From: a phage
Sequence record: PZ721903.1
Strand: one strand, 5' to 3'
Length of the DNA stretch: 49,628 nt
Under the pieces are notes generated by a model, which saw nothing but the letters and a program-made list of their open reading frames with translations, was not told the origin of the DNA and did no database searches. Shown here in pieces: positions 4,248 through 49,620 of this stretch. Each line of letters starts with the position of its first letter. The stretch's first letter is position 1. Position numbers and translations under genes: made by a program.

Positions 4248-5360
4248 ATGAAGGCAAAGCAAAGATTCGATTCGGTAAAAATCAAGGCACACTTTGATGA
4301 TAATGGTTTTTTGGTTGATCGCCCCATCGTGGCGAGAATTGGTGCTCAGGTTTACAAGACTCCACACGGCGATCGCGTTGAGTTCCGTCCGGCGTCCGAA
4401 GTTTTCAAGCAAGATTCATTGCAAAGTTTTGCAGGCAAGCCGATTACAGTAGGTCACGTAACGGTAACTCCCCAAAATGCTAAGGATGTTGTTGTCGGAT
4501 CGTGTGCTGGCGCTGGTATTGCTTCAGGGGTTGGCGTTGAAGTTCCTTTGAGTATTTACAGCGACTACGCGATCAGCAAAGCTAAAGCGAAGGAGGCCGG
4601 GGAATTATCTGTAGGGTATACGTCGGTAGATATTGATAAGCCCGGCTGGGGTTCAAATGAGACTGGAGAATATATCTTCGAAGAGGATATGAAACAGGAC
4701 GAAGCGCCGCCTGAAGGTTGGGTGAAATTCGACGCGGTACAGACTAATATCAAGGTCAACCATATTGCCCTAGTTTTTAAAGGTCGTGCGGGAATTGCTA
4801 AATTAAATCTTGATGCCGAACAGGAGTTCCCGTATGATAATAACGTTCAATTAACTAACGAGGACAAGCAAATGAAAAAAATTAAGATCGACTCAGTTGA
4901 TGTGGAAGTAACCGAAGACGTTGCGAACCATATCGAAAAATTAACCGCTCAGATTGCCACCATTCAGGGGAAAGCTGATGGCTTCGAAGCTGAGCGCGAT
5001 GCGCTGAAGGTTAAGGTTGACTCTCTGCCGGAACTTGTGAAGGCCGAGGTAGAGAAGCAAAAAGCCGATGCCGCCGCACGCGCAGAAGTTACCGCAGTAG
5101 CAGAAACCGCAGGCGTCAAACATGATGGTCTTGATATCAAAGACGTCAAGATTGCCGTAGTTAAAGCCATGCTTGATAAAGATGTTAGTGAAAAATCTGA
5201 TGCATATATCGACGCTATGTTTGATGTTGCTAAAGATTCTGATATCATGGCTATTCAGCGTAAAGCAGTAAAAGGCGACTCTATCGAAGGCGGTAAGCCG
5301 GAAGAGAAAAACGACGCCGCGCCTGTTACGCCAAATTCACGTTTAAGCAAAGTAATGTAA
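4248..5360 (+). CDS. head scaffolding / prohead protease-like protein
   Basis: Start at ATG 4248 (RBS ggag); charged, Ala/Lys/Glu-rich coiled-coil-like C-terminal half typical of scaffolds; position between portal and capsid genes. Confidence 0.45.
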   Translation: MKAKQRFDSVKIKAHFDDNGFLVDRPIVARIGAQVYKTPHGDRVEFRPASEVFKQDSLQSFAGKPITVGHVTVTPQNAKDVVVGSCAGAGIASGVGVEVPLSIYSDYAISKAKAKEAGELSVGYTSVDIDKPGWGSNETGEYIFEEDMKQDEAPPEGWVKFDAVQTNIKVNHIALVFKGRAGIAKLNLDAEQEFPYDNNVQLTNEDKQMKKIKIDSVDVEVTEDVANHIEKLTAQIATIQGKADGFEAERDALKVKVDSLPELVKAEVEKQKADAAARAEVTAVAETAGVKHDGLDIKDVKIAVVKAMLDKDVSEKSDAYIDAMFDVAKDSDIMAIQRKAVKGDSIEGGKPEEKNDAAPVTPNSRLSKVM

Positions 5361-6678: not shown

Positions 6679-6698
6679 CATAAAAACACTTTGACGCT

Positions 6699-6715
6699 TT
6701 AACAAAAAGTGCTAT
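6699..6715. promoter_or_regulatory. palindromic box copy (late region)
   Basis: ttaacaaaaagtgctat; lies between a TTGACG hexamer and attatt, upstream of hairpin 6722. Confidence 0.6.
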
Positions 6716-10432: not shown

Positions 10433-10460
10433 CATCCTATCAACTTTATTCGATTAACTT

Positions 10461-10477
10461 TTAACAAAAAGTGCTAT
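10461..10477. promoter_or_regulatory. palindromic box copy directly upstream of the chaperone RBS
   Basis: ttaacaaaaagtgctat followed by caaCCAATCAGGAGaaacatcATG. Confidence 0.6.
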
Positions 10478-10498
10478 CAACCAATCAGGAGAAACATC

Positions 10499-22969: not shown

Positions 22970-23043
22970 ACGGCACAAATAGCTAAACAAATAATTAATG
23001 AGGTGTTATAATGCACCTCATACACCAATCAGGAGAAGTTAAG

Positions 23044-25704: not shown

Positions 25705-25723
25705 AATAGCACGAATTGCTAAA
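25705..25723. promoter_or_regulatory. palindromic box copy in the tail-fibre 5' UTR / start-site region
   Basis: atagcacgaattgctaaac between the -10 (25728-25733) and RBS of the - strand tail-fibre gene. Confidence 0.6.
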
Positions 25724-25727
25724 CACA

Positions 25728-25756
25728 GATTTTATCATCGCGCCACGAGTCTTGCA
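25728..25756 (-). promoter_or_regulatory. sigma70-like promoter (TTGCAA-17-TAAAAT) for the tail-fibre gene
   Basis: On the - strand: -35 at 25751-25756, -10 at 25728-25733; a palindromic box copy (25705-25723) lies over the predicted start site and 5' UTR. Confidence 0.5.
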
Positions 25757-25761
25757 ACGGG

Positions 25762-25785
25762 CAATAAAAAACCGCCCGAAGGCGG
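25762..25785 (-). terminator. terminator after the primase gene (- strand)
   Basis: ccgcccgaaggcgg hairpin followed on the - strand by a T-run (aataaaaaa on +). Confidence 0.6.
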
Positions 25786-26721
25786 TTATAGTAGATCACT
25801 TGCTGAGAATAACTTAGCTTGCATTCCTGAGCGGTATCCTCCCTGATTCGGGATGATTATTTTTAATTGTCTGTCGTCTGCCATGTATAAAGTTTCTTTA
25901 TCAGATGGTTCGCACGCCACCCTTACCTCCCGATCTCCCTTGTATCTGTACGCAACCATTTCTATATTTTCAGGAGTGAAGCAGGCCCATACCTCTTGCT
26001 TTGTGTGAAATGCAATATGCTGAGCATCAATCCAATTAAGGCATAAGTAGATCGCTTTTTCAGTTTTACCAGTCACGGCAACCGAGCAACTTGTGTATTT
26101 CTTTGCATAAAATGACTCCCTACCCTCCTCATCAATAATCAAAATATTGCAAAACTCTTCATCAAGACCGTCCTCGTGTACAAGTTGACATGGTATGGTG
26201 TGAAATACACTCTCGCCGCCATCCTCTCGACGTTTTACGCCAACGTCGAATGATTCAGTAGGTAGCGACTCAAACATGCTTAGAGGTGTGTTTATGCGCT
26301 TCTCTGTGCGCTCCATAACTTTCATCACTGCCTCGTGTTCTGCCATCATAACATTGACGCCAGCTACCGGAGTTCTTCGCGCTTTTTTGTTGGCCTTGAC
26401 AATGTATTCCTGCGGAACCTTGCCGAGAAATCTTCCCAGGATATTTATACATTCGCTGTACGGCATACCAGTTAATTTCATCAACCAACCGACTCCAGAG
26501 TCGTTACCGCATGAGTTGCAGATCGCACCGCCGTCGCCCGGAGTGTTAAGGTTATCAGTCCAGCGAAAGCGGTCCTTACCCCCGCAGTTAGGGCAAGGTT
26601 GGTGTTTCTTATTAAAAACATCATTCGGCAATCCGCAGATTGATTGGAAAGCCTCGCGCCATAACCCCTTCATGTACGGCAAAACGTCCTCTTTCTGAAA
26701 CATCATAAATTCTTCGTTCAC
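25786..26721 (-). CDS. DNA primase (zinc-binding, putative)
   Basis: N-terminal CPNCGGKDRFRW...CNSCGN zinc-finger motif typical of phage/plasmid primases; 311 aa. Confidence 0.65.
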   Translation of the reverse strand: MNEEFMMFQKEDVLPYMKGLWREAFQSICGLPNDVFNKKHQPCPNCGGKDRFRWTDNLNTPGDGGAICNSCGNDSGVGWLMKLTGMPYSECINILGRFLGKVPQEYIVKANKKARRTPVAGVNVMMAEHEAVMKVMERTEKRINTPLSMFESLPTESFDVGVKRREDGGESVFHTIPCQLVHEDGLDEEFCNILIIDEEGRESFYAKKYTSCSVAVTGKTEKAIYLCLNWIDAQHIAFHTKQEVWACFTPENIEMVAYRYKGDREVRVACEPSDKETLYMADDRQLKIIIPNQGGYRSGMQAKLFSASDLL

Positions 26722-26731
26722 TTCCAGATCT

Positions 26732-26774
26732 CCAAAATAAAAAACGCGTAGAAGGATGTTAACCCGCTACGCGT
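26732..26774 (-). terminator. possible terminator/attenuator between the HTH gene and primase (- strand)
   Basis: acgcgtag...ctacgcgt 8-bp stem with long loop, T-run on the - strand. Confidence 0.4.
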
Positions 26775-26778
26775 CGTT

Positions 26779-26797
26779 TGTTTTAACTAAAAATGCT
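26779..26797. promoter_or_regulatory. palindromic box copy (variant)
   Basis: ttttaactaaaaatgctat overlapping the 3' end of the HTH gene (- strand). Confidence 0.5.
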
Positions 26798-27235
26798 ATT
26801 GGTCGTCCCGATATCTTCCTTCTTCACGACGCGCATAAATTTCTTGTTCTTGCATCGCTTCTCAAGGCACTTGCCGTTACCGTCAAACTTCAGGTCGAAT
26901 CGCAACCATGCGGCACGAAATCCTTTACACCCCTGTCGTCGGTAAGCACGATGCGCAGCTTCAGCACCTTGCCACGAAATCATGTTGCGTTCTTTCCAGC
27001 CTTGCACCGTCTGATTGCTAACCTTTAGAGCTTTTGCGCAGGCCGCAGGGCCACCATAATATTCGATAAGCGCATCAAGTCGCGCTCGCAATCCGGCGCG
27101 TGTTTCTTCTTTATGAATATAGAAGCCGCAGCGCTGTCGAGGCTTTTTATCTTTACCGCGTCGTGTTCCGTTGTTACCATTGATGTGACGTTTATCGATT
27201 TCACCAGTTGACTCTGCGATACGTTGAATACTCAT
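26783..27235 (-). CDS. HTH DNA-binding protein (Cro/YdaS-like, putative regulator)
   Basis: Helix-turn-helix-like segment GGPAACAKALKVSNQTVQGWKER and basic N-terminus; divergent from the helicase gene; stop codon lies inside a palindromic box copy. Confidence 0.45.
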   Translation of the reverse strand: MSIQRIAESTGEIDKRHINGNNGTRRGKDKKPRQRCGFYIHKEETRAGLRARLDALIEYYGGPAACAKALKVSNQTVQGWKERNMISWQGAEAAHRAYRRQGCKGFRAAWLRFDLKFDGNGKCLEKRCKNKKFMRVVKKEDIGTTNSIFS

Positions 27236-27247
27236 CTTAATTCTCCT

Positions 27248-27267
27248 ATAGCACTTTTTGCTAAAAA
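27248..27267 (+). promoter_or_regulatory. palindromic box + -10 (tattat) upstream of the helicase gene
   Basis: atagcactttttgctaaaaa, 22-nt spacer with inverted repeat aacgtttac/gtaaacgtt flanking tattat. Confidence 0.6.
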
Positions 27268-27328
27268 CGTTTACTGTATGCCGTGTATTATAGCGTAAAC
27301 GTTACAACGATTCAAAGGATTAATAGAC

Positions 27329-30541: not shown

Positions 30542-30789
30542 TGAACGAGAAAATGATTCCGGTTAAGTTAACTGATCAAGGTTTATGGCTGCTTTATCGA
30601 GCTACCTGCTGCGAAATCATGGAACAAAACGGATTGACGCAGGATGTTATTGGTTGCGATCTGTGGGAGTTCACTAGCTCTCTTGATATGTCTTTCGATG
30701 AGATAAAAAATGAATACATAGAGAATTGGCCTTCAATCATACAGAGAGACGTAGAGGAACTTAAAGCTGATATGATCGTTCAGCACTAA
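30538..30789 (+). CDS. hypothetical protein
   Basis: ATGA overlap with the Dam stop; RBS gaggaaagt; stop inside a palindromic box copy. Confidence 0.5.
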   Translation: MMNEKMIPVKLTDQGLWLLYRATCCEIMEQNGLTQDVIGCDLWEFTSSLDMSFDEIKNEYIENWPSIIQRDVEELKADMIVQH

Positions 30790-30800
30790 TTGCTAAAACT
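30783..30800 (+). promoter_or_regulatory. palindromic box copy (variant) + TATAGT
   Basis: agcactaattgctaaaac with TAA stop inside; hairpin cccggcgaaagtcggg then tatagt. Confidence 0.55.
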
Positions 30801-30855
30801 ACCCGGCGAAAGTCGGGTATAGTTATTTCATCGAGACGAAATGAGGAATCAAAAG

Positions 30856-31625: not shown

Positions 31626-32777
31626 ATGTCACAAGCTAAAATCACTACCGAACAACTTGTCGAAGAGCGCATGAACGGCCTAACACTTCGCGAGATCGCG
31701 GAAAAGTACGGTATGCACATTCGAACTGTTGAAGCTCGCCACGCAAAGTTGGCAAAAGAAGGTCACTTCCACGGTAACGAGCATGTTGCTAAGAACGTAC
31801 CGGAAGGATTCATGGTAAAAGGCACATCAACGATGATTCGCGGCGATGGGACCGAGGTGGTGCGCTGGGTTAAGACCGATCAGGACCGTGAGAAGATTGC
31901 AGCAATGATGGAAGCGGCGCGTATTGCATTCTGTGAAGATCTGCCGCGAGCAAAGCCAACTGAGCTACTAACCTCACAAGGGCTTACTACAGCGATGGGT
32001 AAGCTGGCACTCTATCCGGTATTCGATCTTCATATTGGCGCGCTTGCTCATAAGCATGAATGCGGAGAGAACTATTCTACCGATGTAGCGGAAAAAGTGC
32101 TGAGTGACTTCTTTAATTACGCGATCGATATTGCTCCGAACGCAGAGAAGGCTGTTCTGTTAATCGGCGGTGACTTCCTGCACTCTGACGGACTTGATGC
32201 AGTTACTCCGGCAAGCGGCCACGTTCTTGATCAGGATTCACGATATGCTAAATTGGTGCATGTAGCGATTCGATCGGTGCGACGAGCTATAGACAAAATG
32301 CTGACGAAACACAAAGAGGTCGAAGTTCAGGTTATCGAAGGAAACCACGACCAGGCCGGGATGATTTGGTTACGCGCAGCAATGGCAGCATACTATGAAG
32401 ACGAGCCGCGAGTATTCGTTGACGTCAGTCCTATGATTCTGCATAAGACTCGTTGGGGAAATACCTTGTTGGGATACACTCACGGGCACACTATGAAAAA
32501 GGCAGACACGCGACTTGCAGCGATGGCAGCAGATTTCCGATCGGATTTCGGCGAGAGCAAGTATGTGTATACTCATAGCGGGCACTGGCATCACCAGACA
32601 ATCACTGAGCACTCGCTAGGTATTGATGAAGTACACGGTCAGTTAGGCGCGAAAGATGCATACGCAGCACGCGGAGGGTGGCGCTCATATCGCCAGGCGG
32701 CGGTAATTGTTTACGATAAGCAGTTTGGTGAAATCGGTCGATTCATCTATCGTCCAGAAATGACAGGATCGCACTAA
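31626..32777 (+). CDS. calcineurin-like metallophosphoesterase with N-terminal HTH
   Basis: Metallophosphatase motifs DLHIG, GGDFLH, GNHD, HGH, GHWH; N-terminal LTLREIAEKYGM helix-turn-helix-like segment. Confidence 0.7.
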   Translation: MSQAKITTEQLVEERMNGLTLREIAEKYGMHIRTVEARHAKLAKEGHFHGNEHVAKNVPEGFMVKGTSTMIRGDGTEVVRWVKTDQDREKIAAMMEAARIAFCEDLPRAKPTELLTSQGLTTAMGKLALYPVFDLHIGALAHKHECGENYSTDVAEKVLSDFFNYAIDIAPNAEKAVLLIGGDFLHSDGLDAVTPASGHVLDQDSRYAKLVHVAIRSVRRAIDKMLTKHKEVEVQVIEGNHDQAGMIWLRAAMAAYYEDEPRVFVDVSPMILHKTRWGNTLLGYTHGHTMKKADTRLAAMAADFRSDFGESKYVYTHSGHWHHQTITEHSLGIDEVHGQLGAKDAYAARGGWRSYRQAAVIVYDKQFGEIGRFIYRPEMTGSH

Positions 32778-32788
32778 TTGATAAAAAC
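32770..32788 (+). promoter_or_regulatory. palindromic box copy (degenerate) + TATAGT
   Basis: cgcactaattgataaaaac, hairpin cccgaagggattcggg, tatagt, CATCGAAAACaaagaggat. Confidence 0.45.
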
Positions 32789-32840
32789 GCCCGAAGGGAT
32801 TCGGGTATAGTAACCACATCGAAAACAAAGAGGATATATC

Positions 32841-34472: not shown

Positions 34473-34531
34473 GTTTTCCTTCAGGTCGTTTCGTTTCGAT
34501 GAAACAAATATACCCGATGCGAGATCGGGTG

Positions 34532-34550
34532 TTTTAACAAAAAGTGCTAT
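34532..34550 (-). promoter_or_regulatory. palindromic box copy, leftward cassette
   Basis: ttttaacaaaaagtgctat on +; on the - strand followed by a hairpin, tatatt and CATCGAAACGAAACGA. Confidence 0.6.
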
Positions 34551-34658: not shown

Positions 34659-35066
34659 TCAAATTCTTCTTTCGTAAGCTGGAGCCTTGCGCACAATTCG
34701 ACGTTCCGATCTATCAATGTTTCTACGTTCGCCAAACAAATCTTCATCACTCATCTCTCCAATGTGCATCATTTCCCACGTATACCGATTGTTGTAGCCA
34801 TCAATACACATCAGCTTCATCATTACCGGGCGCTTAATCTTTCCCTTGCACCAGTAAACTCCATCCTTGCGATCTAAGTAACCCTCAGTCACGCAACGAG
34901 CGCAAAACTCCTTAGATAGCGCGCTTGTAAATTCACGGCGAGTCATTCCAGCAGCCTTAGCAAATCGCTCACTTTCCTTGTGGGCGTATATAAATTTCGC
35001 TATGTGCTGTCGAGTGTATTTGTCGTAACCTTCGCAGAATATGAACAGATCTAGAAGAAGCAGCAT
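34659..35066 (-). CDS. hypothetical protein
   Basis: 135 aa ORF in the leftward early operon. Confidence 0.5.
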   Translation of the reverse strand: MLLLLDLFIFCEGYDKYTRQHIAKFIYAHKESERFAKAAGMTRREFTSALSKEFCARCVTEGYLDRKDGVYWCKGKIKRPVMMKLMCIDGYNNRYTWEMMHIGEMSDEDLFGERRNIDRSERRIVRKAPAYERRI

Positions 35067-36639: not shown

Positions 36640-36694
36640 CACAATAAACTCCTTGGTTGACGGTGTAAATGATACACCGCCAATGGTACACGCG

Positions 36695-36712
36695 TTTTGC
36701 AAAAAGTGCTAT
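36695..36712 (-). promoter_or_regulatory. palindromic box copy, leftward
   Basis: ttttgcaaaaagtgctat; overlaps the stop of 36716..37132 and precedes the P-loop gene. Confidence 0.55.
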
Positions 36713-36715
36713 TGG

Positions 36716-37132
36716 TTATAAGTATTTGGCCTCAAAGGTTGTGCCGTCAGCTATGCTAAAACCGATCTCTTCGCGAAACAATGTCCAACGGCAACCATCC
36801 TCATCAAAAATATAACCAGCTACGCCGCCGAGAGCGCGACCGCTTTCCACCTGGTAACGCTTGCCAAGTTTGAATGATTTTTTCATCGGATTACGATGGT
36901 CAAGCCCGGTGCACTTGAGCGTCTTTGTTTTCAACTCAGCGAACTTCGCGAAGAAGATTTCATCAGATCCGTGAATCTGTAATTCATCATGCTTTTCAAG
37001 TTTTAAATACTTTCCGCATTTTAATTTTACTTCGCGAGTGCCATCATAGCGCTCACGACCTTTGTACAGGTTGTTTACTTCAAATCCTGTGATTTTATCT
37101 GCGGAAGTACATTTAAGTTTGATGGATTTCAT
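36716..37132 (-). CDS. hypothetical protein
   Basis: Preceded on the - strand by a complete cassette including CCAATCAGGAG. Confidence 0.55.
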   Translation of the reverse strand: MKSIKLKCTSADKITGFEVNNLYKGRERYDGTREVKLKCGKYLKLEKHDELQIHGSDEIFFAKFAELKTKTLKCTGLDHRNPMKKSFKLGKRYQVESGRALGGVAGYIFDEDGCRWTLFREEIGFSIADGTTFEAKYL

Positions 37133-37195
37133 TGCGTTAGCTCCTGATTGGTTATCTTGAATAAGGTCACTTTATCAAATGACCTTACGGCAATA

Positions 37196-37212
37196 TTAAC
37201 AAATCGTGCTAT
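37196..37212 (-). promoter_or_regulatory. palindromic box copy, leftward cassette
   Basis: ttaacaaatcgtgctat; on the - strand followed by hairpin, TGaTAAAGT, CCAATCAGGAG and ATG 37132. Confidence 0.6.
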
Positions 37213-37653: not shown

Positions 37654-37714
37654 TTTTAATTCCTTTGTTTTGTTTGGTGTGTGAGTAATATACCTTACTC
37701 ACTATTTATTGTCT

Positions 37715-37731
37715 TTAGCAATTAGTGCTAT
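37715..37731 (-). promoter_or_regulatory. palindromic box copy, leftward
   Basis: ttagcaattagtgctat upstream (on the - strand) of 37429..37653. Confidence 0.55.
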
Positions 37732-38772: not shown

Positions 38773-38830
38773 GATTATTTCCTCGTTTGCTGCTGATGGG
38801 ATGACTATACCAGCCATCCCGGATGCGCGT

Positions 38831-38847
38831 TTAGCAAAAAGTGCTAT
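38831..38847 (-). promoter_or_regulatory. palindromic box copy, leftward cassette
   Basis: ttagcaaaaagtgctat; on the - strand followed by a hairpin around TGgTATAGT and RBS gagga. Confidence 0.6.
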
Positions 38848-39999: not shown

Positions 40000-40208
40000 T
40001 TCGTTACCTCCTGGAAAACAGTTTGTCCGCTATTGGTCAGGAAGCGCCCGATCTTATTCATTGACCGGAACACGCCGATCTGATTCTGATGATTGTCAGT
40101 CGCGAAGTAACCGCCATCAATAAGGTAGATTTCATACACTGATTGATTCGTGAAGCTGTCAGTGCTGACGCTAACACATCGTACGGTACATTCAAATTCT
40201 GGTTCCAT
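39996..40208 (-). CDS. hypothetical protein (first gene of leftward early operon)
   Basis: Preceded by a cassette with CCAATCAGAGGA RBS; ATGA coupling to the next gene. Confidence 0.5.
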   Translation of the reverse strand: MEPEFECTVRCVSVSTDSFTNQSVYEIYLIDGGYFATDNHQNQIGVFRSMNKIGRFLTNSGQTVFQEVTK

Positions 40209-40268
40209 TGCCTGAGTCCTCTGATTGGTTGATGTGATGAATCATACCCTGCCGACCTGGCTGAGTCG

Positions 40269-40285
40269 TTAGCAAAAAATGCTAT
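40269..40285 (-). promoter_or_regulatory. palindromic box copy, leftward early promoter
   Basis: ttagcaaaaaatgctat; on the - strand followed by TATGATTCATCACATCAACCAATCAGAGGA and ATG 40208. Confidence 0.6.
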
Positions 40286-40476
40286 TCCAATAATTGCTCA
40301 TTATTCCATCAATAGCGGAATAGGTGGAATAATTCTGATTGCGATTGATTGCAAATGATGAAACGTGATTATTGCATGGTTTTCAACAGTTGGTTGATTT
40401 GTTGCTTAGATTGCAATGATTGTGAGAGGGGGGGGAATCTAGTGTTGCCCGGTTCGCCTGGTAATCATCTCCATTT

Positions 40477-40493
40477 TTAGCAAAAAGTGCTAT
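40477..40493 (-). promoter_or_regulatory. palindromic box copy, leftward, in control region 2
   Basis: ttagcaaaaagtgctat about 200 nt upstream of the previous copy; no ORF between them. Confidence 0.5.
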
Positions 40494-40896
40494 CGATTAC
40501 ACTTTACCTTGTCACAGATGTAATATTTGTCTAGAATCGCACTTGTGACAAAATTACACACTGTGACGCCTCTAAATATACATATAGATATATGTATCTA
40601 TATAATATATATAGTGTTTTCTTTATTTATATATATAGATAATTATATTGTAATAGTTGTGTATAGTTGTCTTACATTGTCTAGCGTACTGTTGGCATAT
40701 TTCTATCTGCATGTTTATATATACAGTACTTTTTTGAGAGCTATATATTTCTATAGTGACTCTAGACAGCTAGACAAATGTTACACAGCTTAATATCGGC
40801 TCGCAGTCATTGACAGCTCTGTATCGCACTGTCACAATGTCAATTGTTGACACATTATGACGCCATTTACACACGAATAGACAAAGAGGATATATT

Positions 40897-41412
40897 ATGA
40901 GCAATACCAATCAGGAATTAAAAATCACCGATATGATTCGCCTAACCTGCGACGCAATGTATCGCGACAAAGGCATGAGTGAGTTCTCTTTCGTGGCTGA
41001 TGATATGGCCCTGGAAGGCGCACGATTCTACTTCCGTGGCCAGGAGGTAAGCGATAGCGATCTTGAATCTGCCGCTGCCGGATGGGTGGACCAGAACCAG
41101 GGTGAGGTGGAGAAGCGATTCAAGTCTGCTTTCATTACGCCAATCATTACCCGGCACTTTTGCAAGTATGGCAAGGTGGCAAAGGTGAAGGTAGGCCGGA
41201 ATGACGCTGCAATCACAATGATAACGGTTATCGTTACCGACGAAGAGATTCCCGTGAAGAAGCGCCGCAGCCGGAAAAAAGTTAGCCTGGCCGACTGCCT
41301 GGATTCGTTTGATGTTGATGTTGGCAAGCTATCGGATAGCGAGTTAATGGTTCGCGACGTGAATGAGATCGTACGCCAGATGAAAGCACATATCGAAAAG
41401 TGCGGGCTGTAA
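40897..41412 (+). CDS. hypothetical early protein
   Basis: 171 aa, RBS aagagga; first gene of the rightward early operon. Confidence 0.55.
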   Translation: MSNTNQELKITDMIRLTCDAMYRDKGMSEFSFVADDMALEGARFYFRGQEVSDSDLESAAAGWVDQNQGEVEKRFKSAFITPIITRHFCKYGKVAKVKVGRNDAAITMITVIVTDEEIPVKKRRSRKKVSLADCLDSFDVDVGKLSDSELMVRDVNEIVRQMKAHIEKCGL

Positions 41413-41426
41413 CGCTGATAGGTGAA

Positions 41427-41445
41427 ATAGCACTTTTTGTTAAAG
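41427..41445 (+). promoter_or_regulatory. palindromic box + tattat
   Basis: atagcactttttgttaaag, hairpin cccggtcgagcggatcggg, tattat. Confidence 0.55.
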
Positions 41446-41502
41446 CCCGGTCGAGCGGATCGGGTATTATCTTCTCATTGACACGATACAGAGGAATCGA
41501 AG

Positions 41503-41697
41503 ATGGAAACGCAAATTGACGTAGTGGTTGTTCAGCGAGACTCAACTCATGAAAAGGGTCTGTTCAAGAAAGGAACCGAAATCACGATCGACCTTGAGGA
41601 TATGGTTGCGTATCACTCTGGCCTCACTTGGAACGTGGTGCGCGTAGGCAGCGACTACAAACTCAAAGGCTTTAACACTTACTTTGCGGAGGTTTAA
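41503..41697 (+). CDS. hypothetical protein
   Basis: Cassette upstream; RBS gagga. Confidence 0.5.
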   Translation: METQIDVVVVQRDSTHEKGLFKKGTEITIDLEDMVAYHSGLTWNVVRVGSDYKLKGFNTYFAEV

Positions 41698-41699
41698 TT

Positions 41700-42170
41700 A
41701 TGGCGACAATTACCGTATTTCTTGCTAAAGATGAGCTTGATGGCGAAATGTCATTCTTCGCGTTTGAGCATAAAACCGGCTCGCACTGGCACACTTACAG
41801 CCATTACACGGTTATCTCAATCGAAGCGTACGACGGCGAACTGCTCACTGATAAACTGAGTAATTTCATTGAAGCCGTTAAAGCTAGCGGCGGCTGCGAG
41901 TGGAAGGAAGATCACGAAGTTATGCGAATGTTTGAGATGGTCAATCCGGTTCGCCTTGAGTCGTTCGAGCTTGATGCTAATGTGACTATCAAGGTGAGAA
42001 AGTCGGGTGAGTTATTGCCAGGGATGCGTGTACTGACTGGTTACTCTGGCCGTAAGGTGTGGCGCACTGTATCCAAGATTCGCCAGCGCTCGGCAACATG
42101 CTATAGCGTATTCTTTGATGATGGTTGGAATATGATGTCCGGTAGTGAGGTAAAGTATCTCACCAAATAG
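41700..42170 (+). CDS. hypothetical protein
   Basis: 156 aa; stop TAG lies in box copy 42167. Confidence 0.5.
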   Translation: MATITVFLAKDELDGEMSFFAFEHKTGSHWHTYSHYTVISIEAYDGELLTDKLSNFIEAVKASGGCEWKEDHEVMRMFEMVNPVRLESFELDANVTIKVRKSGELLPGMRVLTGYSGRKVWRTVSKIRQRSATCYSVFFDDGWNMMSGSEVKYLTK

Positions 42171-42186
42171 CACGAATTGTTAAAAC
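42167..42186 (+). promoter_or_regulatory. palindromic box + hairpin-embedded TATAGT
   Basis: atagcacgaattgttaaaac; 22 nt; TGcTATAGT inside ggggta...tacccc; CATCGAAACGA; CCAATCAGAGGAAT. Confidence 0.65.
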
Positions 42187-42248
42187 CTGATCGGGGTATC
42201 TTGCTATAGTTACCCCATCGAAACGAGATACCAATCAGAGGAATAACC

Positions 42249-42479
42249 ATGTCAATCGTCAAGAACCAGCAAGCCATCGATTCAACCAACAACAACCGCT
42301 TTGCTATTTTCATCACTCGCGACAACAAGCGTTTTGCGGTCAAGGTAGTACCGGGTGGATACAATACATACATGGAAGGTAACGGAAAATGGGTTCGGTG
42401 TGACAACCTCTCAAACTTCCTGGTCTGGAATGCAGAACTCCAGGGATTTGATGATATCAGCACTTTAATTGAGGAGTAA
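42249..42479 (+). CDS. hypothetical protein
   Basis: Complete cassette upstream (box, hairpin around TATAGT, CATCGAAACGA, CCAATCAGAGGAAT). Confidence 0.5.
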   Translation: MSIVKNQQAIDSTNNNRFAIFITRDNKRFAVKVVPGGYNTYMEGNGKWVRCDNLSNFLVWNAELQGFDDISTLIEE

Positions 42480-42484
42480 TAATC

Positions 42485-42712
42485 ATGCCACGTTACAGCA
42501 ACCTAACTCAACTAACCCGCGTCAACGGGCACATGATCCCGGCTAAATCTACTCACTGCGCGAAAGGCGCAAAGCACGGATTATATTTCAAGTGGCGCGG
42601 CCAATGGAACTTCACAGCTGTGAATAATTTCTACATGCGAGTTCCAGGTGATGACCCGCAATCAGTAGTAGAAAACTCAATCGGTGACAACAAGATCGAG
42701 GTACTAAAATGA
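42485..42712 (+). CDS. hypothetical protein
   Basis: 75 aa ORF in operon. Confidence 0.45.
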   Translation: MPRYSNLTQLTRVNGHMIPAKSTHCAKGAKHGLYFKWRGQWNFTAVNNFYMRVPGDDPQSVVENSIGDNKIEVLK

Positions 42713-42819
42713 ACTTTAATACAGTAGCGCTATGGTCTGCCGTCTGGTTCTTCTGCATGGGTCACGTCATGGTCGGCATCGTGGTAATGCTTCTCCTGTG
42801 TGCGGGGGCGTTCGAATGA
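42709..42819 (+). CDS. small membrane protein (36 aa, one TMD)
   Basis: Below the track cutoff; MNFNTVALWSAVWFFCMGHVMVGIVVMLLLCAGAFE; ATGA coupling at both ends. Confidence 0.35.
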   Translation: MNFNTVALWSAVWFFCMGHVMVGIVVMLLLCAGAFE

Positions 42820-42989
42820 TGCGTATATTGATTTGCATGATGGCTGCTGTCGCCCTGACTATCCTGGTAGTGTCCGGCTGCGGCGAGGTCAAAGAGCGAT
42901 GCCATGAAACCGGGAGCCAGGTTACTACTTTCGTGATGGTTGGCAACGTATTGCTACCAATCACATCAAATGAAATCACTTGCGAATAG
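42816..42989 (+). CDS. small lipoprotein (57 aa)
   Basis: Start ATG 42816 behind RBS ggggg; signal peptide with lipobox VVSGC (MMRILICMMAAVALTILVVSGCGEV). Confidence 0.45.
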   Translation: MMRILICMMAAVALTILVVSGCGEVKERCHETGSQVTTFVMVGNVLLPITSNEITCE

Positions 42990-42998
42990 GATGTTAAA

Positions 42999-43190
42999 AT
43001 GGCTGATTTTATGCACCAAATGATTGCAGTATTCAAATGTAGTGATGACCAGGAAGTTAAAGAGTGCTTCACCGTTGACAAGCCTTATAACGCATCGCTA
43101 ACCAGCTTCGGGAACATCTCATTGCTTGATGATAATGGCGACCCCTGGATATTCGACGAAGACACCGATTGCTTCGAAATTAAAGAATAG
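42999..43190 (+). CDS. hypothetical protein
   Basis: 63 aa; stop TAG inside box copy 43187. Confidence 0.45.
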   Translation: MADFMHQMIAVFKCSDDQEVKECFTVDKPYNASLTSFGNISLLDDNGDPWIFDEDTDCFEIKE

Positions 43191-43206
43191 CACTTTTTGT
43201 TAAAAA
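43187..43206 (+). promoter_or_regulatory. palindromic box + hairpin-embedded TATAGT
   Basis: atagcactttttgttaaaaa; TATAGT within ggggtt...aacccc; CATCGACAACGA. Confidence 0.65.
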
Positions 43207-43261
43207 TAAATTCCGGGGTTGCGATATAGTAACCCCATCGACAACGAACGAGGACGATAGC

Positions 43262-43750
43262 ATGAAAATCAAATTAATTTGCACTGGCGGTTACAAGGGA
43301 TTTACCCGAGATCTGGAAGCGGACCCTATCGTGGTTGATGCGGTGAAGTGTGATTCCAGTACTGGAGGCTACCGTGTTAAGGTTGACGATCTGGTAAAAG
43401 CTGGCGTGTACGATCTTGATTATGGGCTTTCGGTTAGCCCGGTATTTGGTCCGGCCGACTTCAACGAGAAAGACGGAACGATGTTCTTTTTTGAGTGGGA
43501 AGTGCAAGCGAACGTCAAGCCTCGTAAGGTTCGACTTCTCAACAATGGCGGCTACCCGATGAGACCAGGTTATGAGAATCGCACGTTCCCAGTTATTGTG
43601 GACTTCACCGAAATCACTAACAAACTGGTCTACGTCAGCAATGAGCATTTCCAGGCTGTAGGATTCACTGGCGGTATGCATAAAGAAGCGCTGTGCTTCG
43701 TTCGAGAAGAAATGCACGGTTACTATTCTGAGTGCGAGTTAGTTTACTAA
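43262..43750 (+). CDS. hypothetical protein
   Basis: 162 aa; cassette upstream. Confidence 0.5.
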   Translation: MKIKLICTGGYKGFTRDLEADPIVVDAVKCDSSTGGYRVKVDDLVKAGVYDLDYGLSVSPVFGPADFNEKDGTMFFFEWEVQANVKPRKVRLLNNGGYPMRPGYENRTFPVIVDFTEITNKLVYVSNEHFQAVGFTGGMHKEALCFVREEMHGYYSECELVY

Positions 43751-43767
43751 GAACGAATTGTTAAAAG
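43748..43767 (+). promoter_or_regulatory. palindromic box copy (degenerate) + TGgTATAAT
   Basis: aagaacgaattgttaaaagg; TGgTATAAT within gggga...tcccc. Confidence 0.5.
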
Positions 43768-43821
43768 GGGATTTGGCCTGACTGGTATAATCCCCGCATA
43801 AACCACTAAGAGGAAAGCATC

Positions 43822-44328
43822 ATGTTAAAATTAGAAGACGTAAAATTCCCGATTAAATTTATCAGCCTGGGTTGCGGTGAAATTACATTCACCAGTGAAG
43901 ATAAAGGCAAGTTGGCCACTGGTGAGGTGTCTCAGCTTAAGTTGGATTGGTTTATCAATCGGCACAATGAAGTAAATCCTGAAAACTCAGCCAAGAAGGA
44001 TTACCATTACATTATTAGTTGTAGTTATGATGCGTACGGAAAGTATGATGGTTGGAAAACTGATCGATCCATCTTCCACCCCTCAAAGCCAGAAGTCGAG
44101 CCATCGCTACAATGCACTCAGATCGAGAACATGCCATTGAGCGCTACGCTAAAGGGCGTCCAACTTGATAGCGAATCCTGGGCCGAGATTACAGCCACAC
44201 CTAAAACTATTGAGGTACATGATGATGTGGTGATTCTCCTGTTGCATTACGGCAGCTTTAAGCACAAAACGGTATCAGGTGAAATCAGCATTAAGCGCGG
44301 AACGCTTGTACGATATGAGGTGAAATAA
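43822..44328 (+). CDS. hypothetical protein
   Basis: 168 aa; cassette with TGgTATAAT upstream. Confidence 0.5.
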   Translation: MLKLEDVKFPIKFISLGCGEITFTSEDKGKLATGEVSQLKLDWFINRHNEVNPENSAKKDYHYIISCSYDAYGKYDGWKTDRSIFHPSKPEVEPSLQCTQIENMPLSATLKGVQLDSESWAEITATPKTIEVHDDVVILLLHYGSFKHKTVSGEISIKRGTLVRYEVK

Positions 44329-44477
44329 TGGCTGCGTGGGTCTTGATTATCTTGATGAGTACCGGTCCGGATCACGTATACATGGAAAGTCAGCAATCAT
44401 GCAACAAGGCTCGGGAGGTGATTTCAGAGAACAAGCCGTTCGGATACGAAGTAAAAACGATGTGCGTTAAACGATAG
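44328..44477 (+). CDS. small hypothetical protein (49 aa)
   Basis: Below track cutoff; TAATG overlap, RBS gaggtga; stop TAG in box copy 44474. Confidence 0.35.
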   Translation: MAAWVLIILMSTGPDHVYMESQQSCNKAREVISENKPFGYEVKTMCVKR

Positions 44478-44493
44478 CACGAATTGCTAAACC
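44474..44493 (+). promoter_or_regulatory. palindromic box + hairpin-embedded TATAGT
   Basis: atagcacgaattgctaaacc; TGaTATAGT within aaggcca...tggcctt; CCAATCAGAGGAAT. Confidence 0.65.
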
Positions 44494-44557
44494 TTCCGCA
44501 AGGCCATTTGATATAGTGGCCTTATTGAAGCAGAGCGACCAATCAGAGGAATCGGCT

Positions 44558-44689
44558 ATGAAAATCAGATTAACCAGTAGCTACTTTAACCGTGAATCTT
44601 TCAATCAGTACATAATCACAGACGGAATGAATACAGGCATCGTCCTTGATGTATCCCACAGGCGACGTTATGTTTGTATCAGCAACTGA
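44558..44689 (+). CDS. small ORF behind a complete cassette (possible 5' part of a frameshifted gene)
   Basis: ATG 44558 is the one positioned by the CCAATCAGAGGAAT RBS; 43 codons; overlaps the next ORF, which is in the +1 frame. Confidence 0.3.
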   Translation: MKIRLTSSYFNRESFNQYIITDGMNTGIVLDVSHRRRYVCISN

Positions 44690-44852
44690 GCTTGCAAAGT
44701 ACGCAAAGCCAGAACATCGCCACCTGGCAGAGCCGCACTTGAGCGATGGAAAGGTTACAGATTACGCATTCACCAAAGGTGAGTATGAAATCGTGAGATC
44801 TGGACCTTTCAGATTCTGGAACAAACTTAAATCAGGGGAGTTATTCAAATGA
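44649..44852 (+). CDS. hypothetical protein (start uncertain)
   Basis: Track ORF 44646..44852; no convincing RBS of its own. Confidence 0.35.
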   Translation: MYPTGDVMFVSATELAKYAKPEHRHLAEPHLSDGKVTDYAFTKGEYEIVRSGPFRFWNKLKSGELFK

Positions 44853-45136
44853 GCAAAACTCATAAGTTAAAAATCGCCCCTGTACATTTCATTGGTGTAA
44901 TGAACGGAACCAAAACGGCAGAGTTCCGCATCAATGACCGAAACTTCCAATCTGGCGATATCCTGGAGCTATGCGAGTTCGATCGAGATGAGTTTACCGG
45001 GTGGGAAGTTCACGCCAGGGTATCCGATGTTACCGATGTGACGCCATACATCAATCGCGGGTATGACGAGCAAGAATGCGACTTCACGCAATACGTGATG
45101 TTATCAATCAAGCCTTACAGGAAGGTTAGACCATGA
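44849..45136 (+). CDS. DUF3850/ASCH-like domain protein (putative)
   Basis: N-terminal KLKIAPVHF...KTAEFRINDRNFQSGDIL pattern resembles ASCH/DUF3850 proteins. Confidence 0.45.
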   Translation: MSKTHKLKIAPVHFIGVMNGTKTAEFRINDRNFQSGDILELCEFDRDEFTGWEVHARVSDVTDVTPYINRGYDEQECDFTQYVMLSIKPYRKVRP

Positions 45137-45771
45137 AATTTGAATGTGTGCTTAGTAACGGATCTGGATTTAAGTACGGCAAAATCTACGAAGGCGCTCG
45201 CGTCAATTGCAACAGCTTCGTTATCACGGATGAGCGCGGTAGAAATGTTAACGTTGTCCGGCGTCACGAATACCAGGAAATTTTCCTGCCGTACGGCAAT
45301 AGTTCAAAATACATCTTCCATCGAATCGTTGATGGTGTTAAATTTAAAGACGTAATCGAAGCAATCAACCAACTTCATAATAAAGAGGTAAAATTTATGA
45401 AATTCGAATGTATCAGCGATAACACCAAAAAATTTACTGTTGGCAAAATTTACGATGTTCCCTCTGAGCACGCTAAGCACACGGCTGTAATTACCGACGA
45501 CACGGGCCGCCACCGCATTGCAACCGTAACGCACAACGGTGAAGGTCTTCGCTGGAATAGCGGCGGCACTAAGTTCGCAACGTTCGGCAAGAAGCGCAAG
45601 CGCACTTTCTGCGTCAAGGGCAATGTTGCGGCGAACAAGACCCACAACGACAAGGCGTCACAAGTTGACCGCAAGCCAGCATTGAAGTTTGAAGAGAAAG
45701 CGGATTTATCCGGCCTGGCTGTTGCGCTTGTTCTCCTGGTAGCTTCGATTTCGCTGATGTTCATCATGTAA
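45133..45771 (+). CDS. membrane-anchored protein with internal tandem duplication
   Basis: Two homologous units (MKFECVLSNGSGFKYGKIYEG... and MKFECISDNTKKFTVGKIYDV...) and C-terminal TMD LSGLAVALVLLVASISLMFIM. Confidence 0.5.
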   Translation: MKFECVLSNGSGFKYGKIYEGARVNCNSFVITDERGRNVNVVRRHEYQEIFLPYGNSSKYIFHRIVDGVKFKDVIEAINQLHNKEVKFMKFECISDNTKKFTVGKIYDVPSEHAKHTAVITDDTGRHRIATVTHNGEGLRWNSGGTKFATFGKKRKRTFCVKGNVAANKTHNDKASQVDRKPALKFEEKADLSGLAVALVLLVASISLMFIM

Positions 45772-45824
45772 TTTTAACGGGGAATCGGATCTGAACGGTT
45801 CCCCTTTCTTTTGGAGAAAACACT

Positions 45825-45935
45825 ATGCCAGACTTTTCTAACTGGAATAACGAGCCGCCATCATTTCAGGAGTTGCTATTCTGCCTCCTGGTCCTGACAT
45901 TATCTCTTAAGGGTGTTTTATGGCTACTATCATGA
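45825..45935 (+). CDS. small hydrophobic peptide (36 aa)
   Basis: Preceded by a terminator+RBS module (cccctttcttttGGAGAAAACACTATG) identical in type to those of the late operon. Confidence 0.3.
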   Translation: MPDFSNWNNEPPSFQELLFCLLVLTLSLKGVLWLLS

Positions 45936-46138
45936 CAGTAGAAGATGCAGCACGCGATGCAGTGGAAGGAATGCGCCCAAATACCTCCAGAATAGCACAC
46001 TACTACAAATCTGAGGTGTCGGCAGTGCAATTGGTCCACGAAATTTTAAGGCTCCCACAAGTCGATTCAGCGCGAGTAGTGACGTGCTTAAAAAATTATT
46101 TTTGCATCACTATTAAAACGAATAGCACGAATTGCTAA
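45932..46138 (+). CDS. hypothetical protein
   Basis: ATGA overlap with the preceding peptide; stop TAA inside box copy 46122. Confidence 0.4.
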   Translation: MTVEDAARDAVEGMRPNTSRIAHYYKSEVSAVQLVHEILRLPQVDSARVVTCLKNYFCITIKTNSTNC

Positions 46139-46141
46139 AAC
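46122..46141 (+). promoter_or_regulatory. palindromic box + TGaTAGAAT
   Basis: atagcacgaattgctaaaac; TGaTAGAAT within aaggg...ccctt; CCAATCAGAGGAAT before ATG 46206. Confidence 0.65.
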
Positions 46142-46205
46142 TTGCTCAAGGGTATTTGATAGAATGCCCTTCGTTGAGTTAAGCAACCAATCAGAGGAAT
46201 AAATC

Positions 46206-47219: not shown

Positions 47220-47792
47220 ATGAAAACAGCTATCATTTTAAACGGCGCACCTGGTGCGGGAAAGGACACTATCGGATGCATCCTTGCTGACACTTACGAT
47301 CACGTAGCCTTGCGCAGCTTCAAAGCGCCAATGTTTGAGATTGCCAGGGCAATCCTGGGTGAAGCTAACTACGAGTATTTCATGTTCTTGTATGAGGACC
47401 GTCGATATAAAGAAGAGCCAGCATCAATCCTGAACGGTAAAAGCCCGCGCCAGTTTATGATCTGGATTAGCGAGGAAGTCATCAAGCCGCAGTTCGGAAA
47501 TCGCTTCTTCGGTATGCGAGCGGAAAGCAAGGTGAAAGAGTCGCACTCCCTTTCGGTATTTACTGATGGTGGATTCAAAGACGAAATCTTGCAGATGATT
47601 GAAGGTGATATCCAGGTCAAGCTATGTCGAATACATCGCAACGGTTGCAGCTTTGATAACGACAGCCGCGACTATATCTATCTTGACGACATGATCGGGG
47701 TTAACGGTTATCAGGAATGTGACTTCTTTTCTGTCGAAGGTCATCCAGAAATTACCGCTCAGCACATAGCCGCCACGTTCATCAATAAATAG
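47220..47792 (+). CDS. P-loop kinase, dNMP-kinase-like
   Basis: Walker A GAPGAGKDT and LNGKSP segment resembling T4 gp1-type deoxynucleotide monophosphate kinases. Confidence 0.55.
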   Translation: MKTAIILNGAPGAGKDTIGCILADTYDHVALRSFKAPMFEIARAILGEANYEYFMFLYEDRRYKEEPASILNGKSPRQFMIWISEEVIKPQFGNRFFGMRAESKVKESHSLSVFTDGGFKDEILQMIEGDIQVKLCRIHRNGCSFDNDSRDYIYLDDMIGVNGYQECDFFSVEGHPEITAQHIAATFINK

Positions 47793-47808
47793 CACGAATT
47801 GCTAAAAC
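47789..47808 (+). promoter_or_regulatory. palindromic box + TGaTATAGT
   Basis: atagcacgaattgctaaaac; -10 at 47827-47832 puts the palindrome centre (47797) near -42; CATCGACAACGA at the predicted transcript start. Confidence 0.65.
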
Positions 47809-47864
47809 GTCGATGGGGTGATTTGATATAGTTACCTCATCGACAACGAAGAGAGAAAATCTAA

Positions 47865-49568: not shown

Positions 49569-49577
49569 TAAACACTA

Positions 49578-49620
49578 ACCCGCTTCGGCGGGTTTTTTTA
49601 TGCCTGCAATATGGTAAAAT
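49578..49620 (+). terminator. terminator followed by TGgTAAAAT extended -10-like box upstream of terminase
   Basis: acccgcttcggcgggt + T7, then atggtaaaat (49611-49620); junction box copy and terS RBS follow across the window end. Confidence 0.65.

Follow-up and report, generated by a model that had tools for sequence, protein, structure and literature searches.

Most small genes of T1-like phages appear to be preceded by one compact cassette, in which a predicted promoter and an RNA hairpin occupy the same DNA. We analyzed this cassette in the phage DNA of sequence record PZ721903.1 (49,628 nucleotides (nt); this whole stretch is called the window), taking the copy at 42167-42249 as the starting point. 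The hairpin is selected as a structure of the sense RNA and not as a DNA cruciform. We propose, with a probability of roughly 0.6, that the cassette is a composite of a promoter and an attenuator or 3′-stabilizer for the upstream and read-through transcripts, similar to the PeSL cassettes of T4-type phages. An earlier reading of the same letters (the original prediction) had described a palindromic box, a -10 hexamer held in a hairpin, a shared leader and a shared ribosome-binding site (RBS). This anatomy is correct and is conserved across genera of the Drexlerviridae.

The window is the genome of a Tunavirus (T1-like phage, Drexlerviridae). Its terminase and portal genes are 100% identical to those of phage FCWL1 (Tunavirus, Drexlerviridae), and over the region 40000-46000 the identity is 98% with Escherichia phage phiD2-2 and 87-97% with other T1-like phages. 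About 20 intergenic cassettes of one layout are present in the window. They are dense in 26.7-49.6 kb, ahead of small open reading frames (ORFs), and the cassette at 42167 sits amid small genes with no assigned function near one end of the genome. The layout is the same in T1, a Hanrivervirus, two Webervirus genomes and a Veterinaerplatzvirus. Cassettes of relatives were collected by scanning IMG/VR with the exact pattern of the box; most hits were single chance matches, and loci with at least three boxes were kept. The samples used below are 330 copies from relatives, 238 unique T1-like cassettes, 128 cassette clusters and 86 cassettes from six genomes. Chimeras, in which the 5′ half of a cassette is followed by the 3′ half of a different one, were used as a control. 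The alignment of 128 cassettes was not selected for pairing and was compared with 500 shuffles and with slid registers. Because the cassettes are related to each other, the figures from the alignment and the shuffles should not be taken as probabilities.

The order of parts in a cassette is as follows: the 19-nt box ATAGCACnnnTTGnTAAAA, a 19-nt spacer, an extended -10, a discriminator, the predicted start C(-1)A(+1)TCGAAACGA, an A-rich leader and a Shine-Dalgarno sequence (SD). The features of the cassette at 42167, all on the + strand, are listed here.

42167-42185, + strand: palindromic box ATAGCACGAATTGTTAAAA (TAGCAn5TGTTA), the known 21-nt direct repeat
42168-42170, + strand: stop codon TAG of the upstream ORF 41700-42170, inside the box
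42189-42191 with 42217-42219, + strand: outer pairs of the hairpin given by RNAfold, GAU with AUC
42193-42198, + strand: 5′ arm GGGGTA of a class A hairpin, located within the promoter spacer (about -24 to -19)
42202-42210, + strand: extended -10 TGcTATAGT (hexamer 42205-42210) in the hairpin loop, at box position 39
42211-42216, + strand: 3′ arm TACCCC, doubling as the discriminator (-6 to -1)
42216-42226, + strand: leader box CATCGAAACGA (11 nt), with the predicted start at A42217 (C-1/A+1)
42231-42242, + strand: CCAATCAGAGGA, in which the element CCAATCAG is fused to the SD (GAGGA), 7 nt before ATG 42249
42249-42479, + strand: downstream small ORF (76 amino acids), no Pfam match

The promoter part is defined by a fixed distance between the box and the -10. 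The consensus of the 128 clusters is aAATAGCACtttTTGcTAAAac - N17 - GgTATaaT - ..cc.CAtcgAaAc. The -10 hexamer (TATAGT, CATAAT, TATTAT and similar sequences) begins at box position 39 (offset 38) in 295 of the 330 copies from relatives, and all but two of the full cassettes in the window have it at the same position. Among the 128 clusters, G at -14 is found in 105, TG in 54 and C-1/A+1 in 76. The predicted promoters have the features of extended -10 sigma-70 promoters, namely TAnnnT, an upstream TGn and a purine start 6-8 nt downstream. No -35-like sequence was found 16-19 nt from the -10s of the cassettes, and because nothing like a -35 is present there, a standard -35/-10 scan missed the cassettes: it detected none of them, and its total was smaller than the shuffle mean. 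Two other readings of the box were rejected. TTGnTA in the box cannot serve as a -35, given its fixed 22-nt spacing to the -10. By inspection, TGnTAAAA in the box is not a second extended -10, since the last T of the hexamer is absent and there is no conservation upstream.

The box itself is palindromic (TAGCAn5TGCTA), and the box has 21 matches in the window compared with 1.4 expected. Its center lies at about -42 from the predicted start when the -10 is taken as -12 to -7. The re-annotation of phage TLS in 2024 reported 18 intergenic copies of a 21-nt repeat, aaATAGCACnnnTTGnTAAAA, about 76 nt before start codons (PMC11447400). Only three sigma-70-like intergenic promoters were found there; the function of the repeat was among the open questions of that study, and a stoperator, an enhancer site or an UP element were raised as candidates (PMC11447400). 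The 21-nt repeats of TLS, T1, Rtp and Rogue1 described in that paper are the same element as the box at 42167-42185 and are oriented with transcription. They were tabulated apart from promoters and terminators, a -10 at a fixed offset was not described, and the words "hairpin" and "stem-loop" are absent from the main text (word search of PMC11447400). Thus, four things are new relative to that study: the fixed-offset -10, the hairpins embedded in the cassette, the box at the start site and the RBS module that cassettes share. As a concrete answer to the question of function, we offer that the 21-nt repeats are the upstream element of about 20 predicted promoters per genome that lack a -35.

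The position of the box center (for example, in the boxes 42167-42185, 27248-27266 and 38829-38847) is that of class II activators. The consensus of Escherichia coli Lrp is yAGhAwATTwTdCTr (PMC5554404). Both half-sites of the box fit this consensus, with agreement at 13 of 15 positions for the TTTTT variant, and a scan of the window with the Lrp consensus showed weak enrichment (20 matches compared with 10.6 +/- 3.6 expected). Small helix-turn-helix proteins are encoded in T1 and in the window, where their ORFs are 26783-27235, 34659-35066 and 36716-37132, each on the - strand.

Between the box and the start site, the hairpin occurs at two positions. In class A, the -10 is flanked by the two arms, the 5′ one within the spacer and the 3′ one coinciding with the discriminator; in the commonest register, box positions 27-33 pair with 50-44, where position 50 is -1. 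In class B, the 19-nt spacer holds the entire hairpin, a GC-rich stem closed by a loop of 4-5 nt, and the 3′ arm (...GGG) abuts the -10. The 238 unique cassettes comprise 132 of class A, 53 of class B and 15 with a hairpin at other positions. Perfect stems that span the -10 with 6 bp or more are present in 44% of these cassettes compared with 6.4% of chimeras, and a stem of at least 6 bp within the spacer is present in 14% compared with 1.2% of shuffled spacers. As RNA, eight hairpins that enclose the -10 have energies of -13.9 to -23 kcal/mol (z -3.3 to -7.9). A scan of the whole window against Rfam gave no matches at the gathering score. The inverted repeats that the original prediction had placed around the -10 at four sites are all present, a few bases away from the positions given there for some arms: the corrected arms are 43215-43220 with 43231-43236, 44500-44506 with 44517-44523 and 43767-43772 with 43790-43795.

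The arms are diverse in sequence yet complementary (GGGGTA/TACCCC, AAGGCCA/TGGCCTT, GGGATG/CATCCC, ACGTTTAC/GTAAACGT and GTGAGTAA/TTACTCAC). In the main register of the 128-cassette alignment, 53.6% of cells are paired compared with 46.4 +/- 1.2 in shuffles, the number of doubly changed cells is 143 compared with 86, and the covariation score is 0.267 compared with 0.184; none of the 500 shuffles reached these three values, and the slid controls scored 0.065-0.169. Orthologous sites also exchange one class for the other. Before gene 41503, the window has a class B cassette where five relatives have one of class A, and the class A cassette of the window at 38847 corresponds to a class B orthologue in relative L130. 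Because the classes replace each other, the conserved thing is a hairpin between the box and +1 rather than a hairpin around the -10. Across the 238 cassettes the arms covary, and the enclosure of the -10 is only one of two hairpin positions.

Next, we consider whether the paired structure is DNA, RNA or a by-product. According to the original prediction, a hairpin around the -10 could make the promoter sensitive to supercoiling or could be extruded as a cruciform, which would expose or hide the hexamer in the loop. A cruciform needs pairing in both strands, and a G·T mismatch on one strand is an A·C mismatch on the other, so that a cruciform would be hurt by both mismatch types alike. We counted isolated in-stem mismatches that have two Watson-Crick pairs on each side, once per local context, and obtained 31 G·T, no A·C and 14 others. 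In contrast, chance stems in chimeras contained 152 G·T and 183 A·C. The mean fold energy of the 86 cassettes from six genomes was -12.7 kcal/mol for the sense RNA and -9.9 kcal/mol for the antisense RNA, and the sense strand was the more stable in 65 cassettes as opposed to 18 for the antisense strand (p = 6e-9). The loops of class B include the GNRA types GAAA, GCAA, GCGA and GGGA, which are an RNA feature, and none of their complements. Long loops and weak DNA hairpins disfavor the extrusion of cruciforms: class A loops are 6-12 nt long, and as DNA the hairpins have loops of 6-14 nt and only -4 to -8.5 kcal/mol (sense strand, -5.5 to -8.5). Furthermore, class B, in which the -10 is outside the hairpin, substitutes for class A at the same sites. 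A DNA device could still draw on three facts, namely that the -10 is truly in the loop in about half of the cassettes, that the 3′ arm of class A is the discriminator, a region that tunes the stability of the open complex, and that the DNA folds of both strands are better than those of shuffles. Weighing these points, we consider a role as a DNA device very improbable. The early promoters of phage N4 (hairpin type) and cruciform-dependent promoters also have an inverted repeat at the promoter. In N4, the hairpins form in DNA, have 3-nt loops and a conserved sequence, and are read by the virion RNA polymerase. Unlike these, the cassettes have variable arms, long loops and selection on the sense RNA, and neither equal pairing of the two DNA strands nor a short loop was found. 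A different doubt is that the complementarity has no function of its own and merely reflects descent from a few ancestors, or recombination. The cassettes are indeed paralogous and probably recombine, and sequences that are kin can exceed shuffle controls without any structural constraint. However, the arms differ widely in sequence while complementarity is kept, the cassette at 37731 shows a compensatory double change (GTGAGTAA/TTACTCAC in the window, GGGAGTAA/TTACTCCC in the orthologous cassette at T1 47633), and the excess of 31 G·T over no A·C is beyond what descent alone can give. The chance that the hairpins are such a by-product therefore seems to us close to negligible. Taken together, the structure is selected in the sense RNA and not as a DNA cruciform. 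The other suggestion made for the hairpin, a 3′ structure at the RNA level for the upstream transcript, is consistent with the mismatches, the strand preference, the loops, the energies and the exchange of classes.

The place of the hairpin in the promoter may be explained by compaction. In 56 of the 86 cassettes, the stop codon of the upstream gene is inside the box (TAG of ATAGCAC in 39 and TAA of CTAAAA in 11), and in 20 more it is at most 22 nt upstream of the box. Since the upstream gene usually ends inside the box, the promoter is all that is left of untranslated sequence in the upstream transcript outside the downstream 5′ untranslated region, and a 3′ hairpin would have room only there. 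It would either be fitted into the 19-nt spacer with a short loop (class B) or straddle the -10 (class A), and compaction would explain a -10 in the loop without any special mechanism acting on the -10. On the DNA, then, the promoter would consist of the palindromic box near -42, an extended -10 located 19 nt after the box, no -35 and a C(-1)A(+1)TCGAAACGA start. The hairpin would act in RNA that comes from upstream and reads through the cassette, where it would fold just 5′ of the start site of the next gene and serve as an attenuator, as 3′-end protection for the upstream message, or as both. Class B resembles intrinsic terminators in its GC-rich stem, its tetraloop (often GNRA) and its U-rich tail, which would be supplied by the -10 and the T-rich discriminator (3.6 T in the 8 nt after the stem); class B thus has part of what defines an intrinsic terminator, and the T1 record has a rho-independent terminator annotated at 41978-42000, over the class B hairpin of the cassette with box start 41956. 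Class A, with no U tract, would probably let the polymerase through and only pause it or stabilize the RNA. An RNA initiated from the cassette's own promoter would have no hairpin, and its 5′ end would be an A/C-rich leader without structure.

The leader begins with a second conserved box. When one mismatch is tolerated, 56 of 128 clusters (about 44%) have CATCGA at -1 to +5, and in 39 of these 56 the motif takes a longer form resembling CATCGAnAACGA. The box accompanies either class of hairpin, being present in 19 of 53 clusters of class A and in 24 of 37 of class B; copies in the window are at 42216-42226, 43236-43247, 47838-47849, 39262(-) and 34501(-). The leader as a whole (the 5′ untranslated region) has a median length of 25 nt and is 45% A and 14% U. 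Thus, the shared leader that had been described is present, although the copy at 42216 is 11 nt long and does not have the 'n' of the consensus. Its proposed role as a signal for translation or RNA processing was not supported in that form. In the T7 record, which was read for the three major promoters used by E. coli RNA polymerase, promoter A1 starts with cc and then ATCGAGAGGG, and A3 with ac and then ATGAAACGACAG; the cassette consensus is cc and then ATCGAAACGA. T7 A1 and A3 share the C-rich discriminator with the cassettes, but they have canonical -35 hexamers, and neither a box nor a hairpin at that place. The box of the cassettes is exactly at the predicted start, and the T7 starts are far upstream of the first gene, gene 0.3, which begins near 925; these two facts point to initiation rather than translation. 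By analogy, the motif more likely serves initiation, promoter escape or the RNA 5′ end, which we regard as a lead, and the likeness suggests a shared initial transcribed sequence that is favorable for E. coli RNA polymerase.

The RBS module is found in a subset of the cassettes. CCAATCAG, followed by AGGA or GAG, lies 17-23 nt before ATG in about 19% of clusters, in several genera and before unrelated genes. In the window, CCAATCAGAGGA has 14 matches compared with 3.9 expected, and CCAATCAG is at 42231-42238, 44539-44546, 46187-46194, 10481-10488, 23025-23032 and 40221-40228(-). The extended RBS had been listed before the ATGs at 10499, 23044, 42249, 44558, 46206, 37132(-) and 40208(-), and we found it at all of these positions. 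In the ortholog sets, the eight bases of CCAATCAG are near-invariant (one A-to-G change in the sets shown) and the flanks vary, which indicates that the element is selected. Pairing of CCAATCAG with the 3′ end of 16S rRNA as an extended SD was ruled out by inspection, because there is no rRNA partner for it: the 3′ end of 16S rRNA has nothing left to pair with bases 5′ of the SD. The complement of CCAATCAG, CTGAYTGG, is a conserved motif just 5′ of the -10 in another sub-family of cassettes (for example, 43777-43785), where it lies in the hairpin loop. The product of the gene at 44849-45136, which is called an RNA-binding protein in RefSeq relatives, has a Pfam match to DUF3850/ASCH, and the segment is absent from T1; this match gives no link to the leader.

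Given these parts, three further accounts of the hairpin have to be compared with a promoter joined to an attenuator or 3′-stabilizer. In one of them, the hairpins affect RNA processing and stability without any effect on transcription: as targets of endonucleases (RNase III or RNase E) or as blocks to exonucleases, they would cut polycistronic RNA down to stable monocistronic messages. Such cutting occurs between the early genes of T7. Selection in the sense RNA, hairpins at every gene boundary and the lack of U tracts in class A are consistent with this account, and canonical terminators with T runs are present elsewhere in the region (45779-45804 and 49577-49594), which suggests that the cassette hairpins do something besides terminate. 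Against this stand the stems of 6-9 bp, which are short for RNase III, and the terminator-like shape of class B, annotated as such in T1. We judge pure processing unlikely, although it overlaps with attenuation or stabilization and does not exclude it. Another account is translational discrimination. In T4 genes e, soc, 49 and I-TevI, the RBS is hidden in the read-through RNA and is freed in transcripts from an internal promoter. As in these genes, the promoter of the cassette is in a hairpin-forming region, and long and short transcripts would differ in structure; here, the 5′ arm or the spacer in read-through RNA would pair with the leader or the SD and silence translation, whereas transcripts from the cassette's own promoter, which lack the 5′ arm, would be translated. 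An alternative fold of the cassette at 42167 pairs the spacer with AGAUACC..AUCAG next to the SD, outer helices enter the leader at 44474, 46122 and 47789, and strong spacer-SD duplexes are found in single cassettes of relatives (-19.9 kcal/mol in L123 at 28925(-) and -19.4 kcal/mol in L117 at 2655). As a general rule, however, sequestration of the SD by the spacer was ruled out, because spacer-SD complementarity does not exceed that in chimeras (medians -5.4 and -5.5 kcal/mol, p = 0.30). Moreover, in the orthologues of 42167 the spacer bases of the alternative fold vary and CCAATCAG does not. Some 20 nt separate the end of the main helix, at -1, from the SD, and, unlike the T4 e type, the cassette has its start site 3′ of the complete hairpin, which in general does not include the SD. 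Discrimination of this kind is therefore improbable. The last account keeps the promoter and the attenuator and adds an activator. The box at -42 would be bound by a dimeric activator, either a host protein such as Lrp or a phage protein, which would let host RNA polymerase use promoters without a -35. The class A hairpin would attenuate without a U tract: read-through polymerase that retains sigma-70 would pause at the -10-like sequence, and the hairpin would close 5-11 nt behind the 3′ end of the RNA. CCAATCAG could add RNA-RNA cross-talk between cassettes. We hold this complete module to be improbable as well.

Several points weigh against the combination of promoter and attenuator or 3′-stabilizer that we prefer. 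Promoter activity, the start site and the 3′ ends are predictions from sequence, and no transcript map of a T1-like phage was found in the literature searched. The kinship of the cassettes inflates shuffle-based statistics. A clear hairpin is absent from 38 of the 238 unique cassettes. Class A hairpins, including the copy at 42167, are not canonical intrinsic terminators as judged from sequence: unlike intrinsic terminators, they have loops of 6-12 nt, and the 8 nt that follow the stem are poor in U (1.0 T). Finally, 10 cassettes have no co-directional gene immediately upstream, and six of these 10 have a hairpin (for example, 27248); thus, a role at the 3′ end of the upstream transcript cannot be the whole story.

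The nearest known parallel is found in T4-type phages. RB49/phi1, PST and nt-1 have PeSLs (promoter-early stem-loops), which are cassettes of a promoter and a stem-loop (PMC2839356, PMC4122927). The stem-loop sits in the stretch that separates the -35 from the -10 or overlaps the -10, and the stems are formed by G-tracts and C-tracts with G-T pairs (PMC2839356; PMC4122927). One PeSL stem-loop terminates transcription in vivo, where it cut downstream lacZ about as much as the rrnB T1 terminator did, and recombination between PeSL cassettes, which leads to gene gain and loss, has been demonstrated (PMC2839356; PMC4122927). Both PeSLs and the cassettes of T1-like phages combine an early promoter for host RNA polymerase (a predicted one here) with a stem-loop, whose usual place in both is downstream of the upstream element and ahead of the -10, or overlapping with the -10. 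G-rich and then C-rich stems with G-T pairs are also common to both, as is clustering before small genes without assigned function in variable regions, where insertions and deletions are bounded by cassettes. Unlike PeSLs, the T1-like cassettes have no -35 hexamer and no AT-rich UP region, but a palindromic box 19 nt from an extended -10, a conserved start-site box and, in a subset, the CCAATCAG-SD module. They belong to siphoviruses of the Drexlerviridae and have no sequence homology to the T4-type cassettes; the activities of PeSLs have been measured, whereas the T1-like cassettes are known from their sequence. The cassettes are thus best described as an analogue of PeSLs and would not be a homologue or a member by descent. 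Neither PeSLs nor such cassettes in T1-like phages were described in the literature searched; among the 25 top-ranked of 64 matching papers, none combined "PeSL" with a term for T1-like phages.

Cassettes may also serve as recombination points for gene gain and loss. Blocks of homology with T1 start at 42166, 43185 and 46121, and the boxes start at 42167, 43187 and 46122; other blocks end inside cassettes, at 44532 and 46152. T1 has an extra cassette and gene at T1 4344-4863, which are absent from the window, and the window ORFs 41503-42170, 42999-43190 and 44558-45384 are absent from T1. We infer that this pattern of breakpoints is the one expected from recombination between cassettes.

The other cassettes of the window fall into the same two classes. 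In addition to 42167, class A is represented by 43187, 43748, 44474, 46122, 47789, 27248, 36712(-), 37212(-) and 38847(-), and with variations by 22970, 26799(-) and 37731(-). Class B is represented by 30780, 32768, 34550(-) and 41427. Their features are as follows.

43187-43237, + strand: class A, arms GGGGTTGC (43215-43222) and GTAACCCC (43229-43236) around TATAGT; leader CATCGACAACGA
43748-43798, + strand: class A with a degenerate box, arms GGGGATT (43767-43773) and AATCCCC (43789-43795); the loop is CCTGACTGG and most of TATAAT
44474-44524, + strand: class A, arms AAGGCCAUU and AGUGGCCUU; outer helix CUUC/GAAG (44493-44530); CCAATCAGAGGA at 44539-44550
46122-46172, + strand: class A, arms AAGGGTATT (46148-46156) and AATGCCCTT (46163-46171) with one U·G pair
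47789-47839, + strand: class A; the stem is the longest, pairing 47809-47823 and 47830-47844 (-23 kcal/mol for the RNA), has G·U pairs and takes in the leader CATCGAC on its 3′ strand
27248-27298, + strand: class A, arms AACGTTTAC and GTAAACGTT around TATTAT
22970-23020, + strand: degenerate box, GAGGTG..TATAAT..CACCTC, then CCAATCAGGAGA before ATG 23044
36662-36712, - strand: class A, arms TTGGCGGTGTA and TACACCGTCAA overlapping TATCAT
37162-37212, - strand: class A, arms TAAGGTCATTT and AAGTGACCTTA around TAAAGT; CCAATCAGGAG before ATG 37132
37681-37731, - strand: cassette with the stem GTGAGTAA/TTACTCAC overlapping TATATT
38797-38847, - strand: class A, arms GGGATGGCT and AGTCATCCC
26749-26799, - strand: true terminator shape, stem ACGCGTAG/CTACGCGT around TAACAT, then TTTTTTATTTT
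30780-30830, + strand: class B, hairpin 30800-30819, TACCCGGC-GAAA-GTCGGGTA in the spacer, abutting TATAGT; T-rich discriminator
32768-32818, + strand: class B, CCCGAA-GGGA-TTCGGG abutting TATAGT
34500-34550, - strand: class B, ACCCGAT-CTCGC-ATCGGGT abutting TATATT, then TGTTTC
41427-41477, + strand: class B, hairpin 41445-41465 with tail ATTATCTTCT, detected by the terminator scan

A few boxes are found in unusual surroundings. Two boxes of the - strand (6697-6715 and 10459-10477) lie within the structural region of the + strand, each after a terminator-like hairpin. The box at 6697-6715 is about 55 nt before the start of the major capsid gene (6770), and the T1 record has a predicted promoter over it. 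The box at 10459-10477 is 22 nt before the start of the gene for the tape-measure chaperone (10499) and is followed at a distance of 3 nt by the RBS motif CCAATCAGGAGA (10481-10492). At 25706-25790, a box with + orientation is directed into two converging genes of the - strand; the hairpin there (AACCGCCCGAAGGCGGTT) is the terminator of the primase gene of the - strand and is followed by TATAGT on the + strand. This box might be a remnant, or antisense RNA might be made from it. At 40300-40900, the leftward and rightward blocks of small genes diverge from a control region that separates them. It contains a box without a -10 (40475-40493, - strand) and the first leftward cassette, which has no hairpin (40285). 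Canonical -35/-10 matches are at 40509, 40577 and 40810, and these predicted promoters are possibly immediate-early.

T1-like phages are common laboratory contaminants and candidates for therapy, and standard tools find only a handful of promoters in their genomes. The cassette model gives about 20 predicted start sites per genome and a testable account of how about 20 transcription units per genome are built and insulated. The cassettes might also be used as compact, portable promoter and insulator parts for E. coli. Finally, the parallel with PeSLs suggests that virulent phages have repeatedly come to use cassettes of a promoter plus a hairpin for shuffling small genes.

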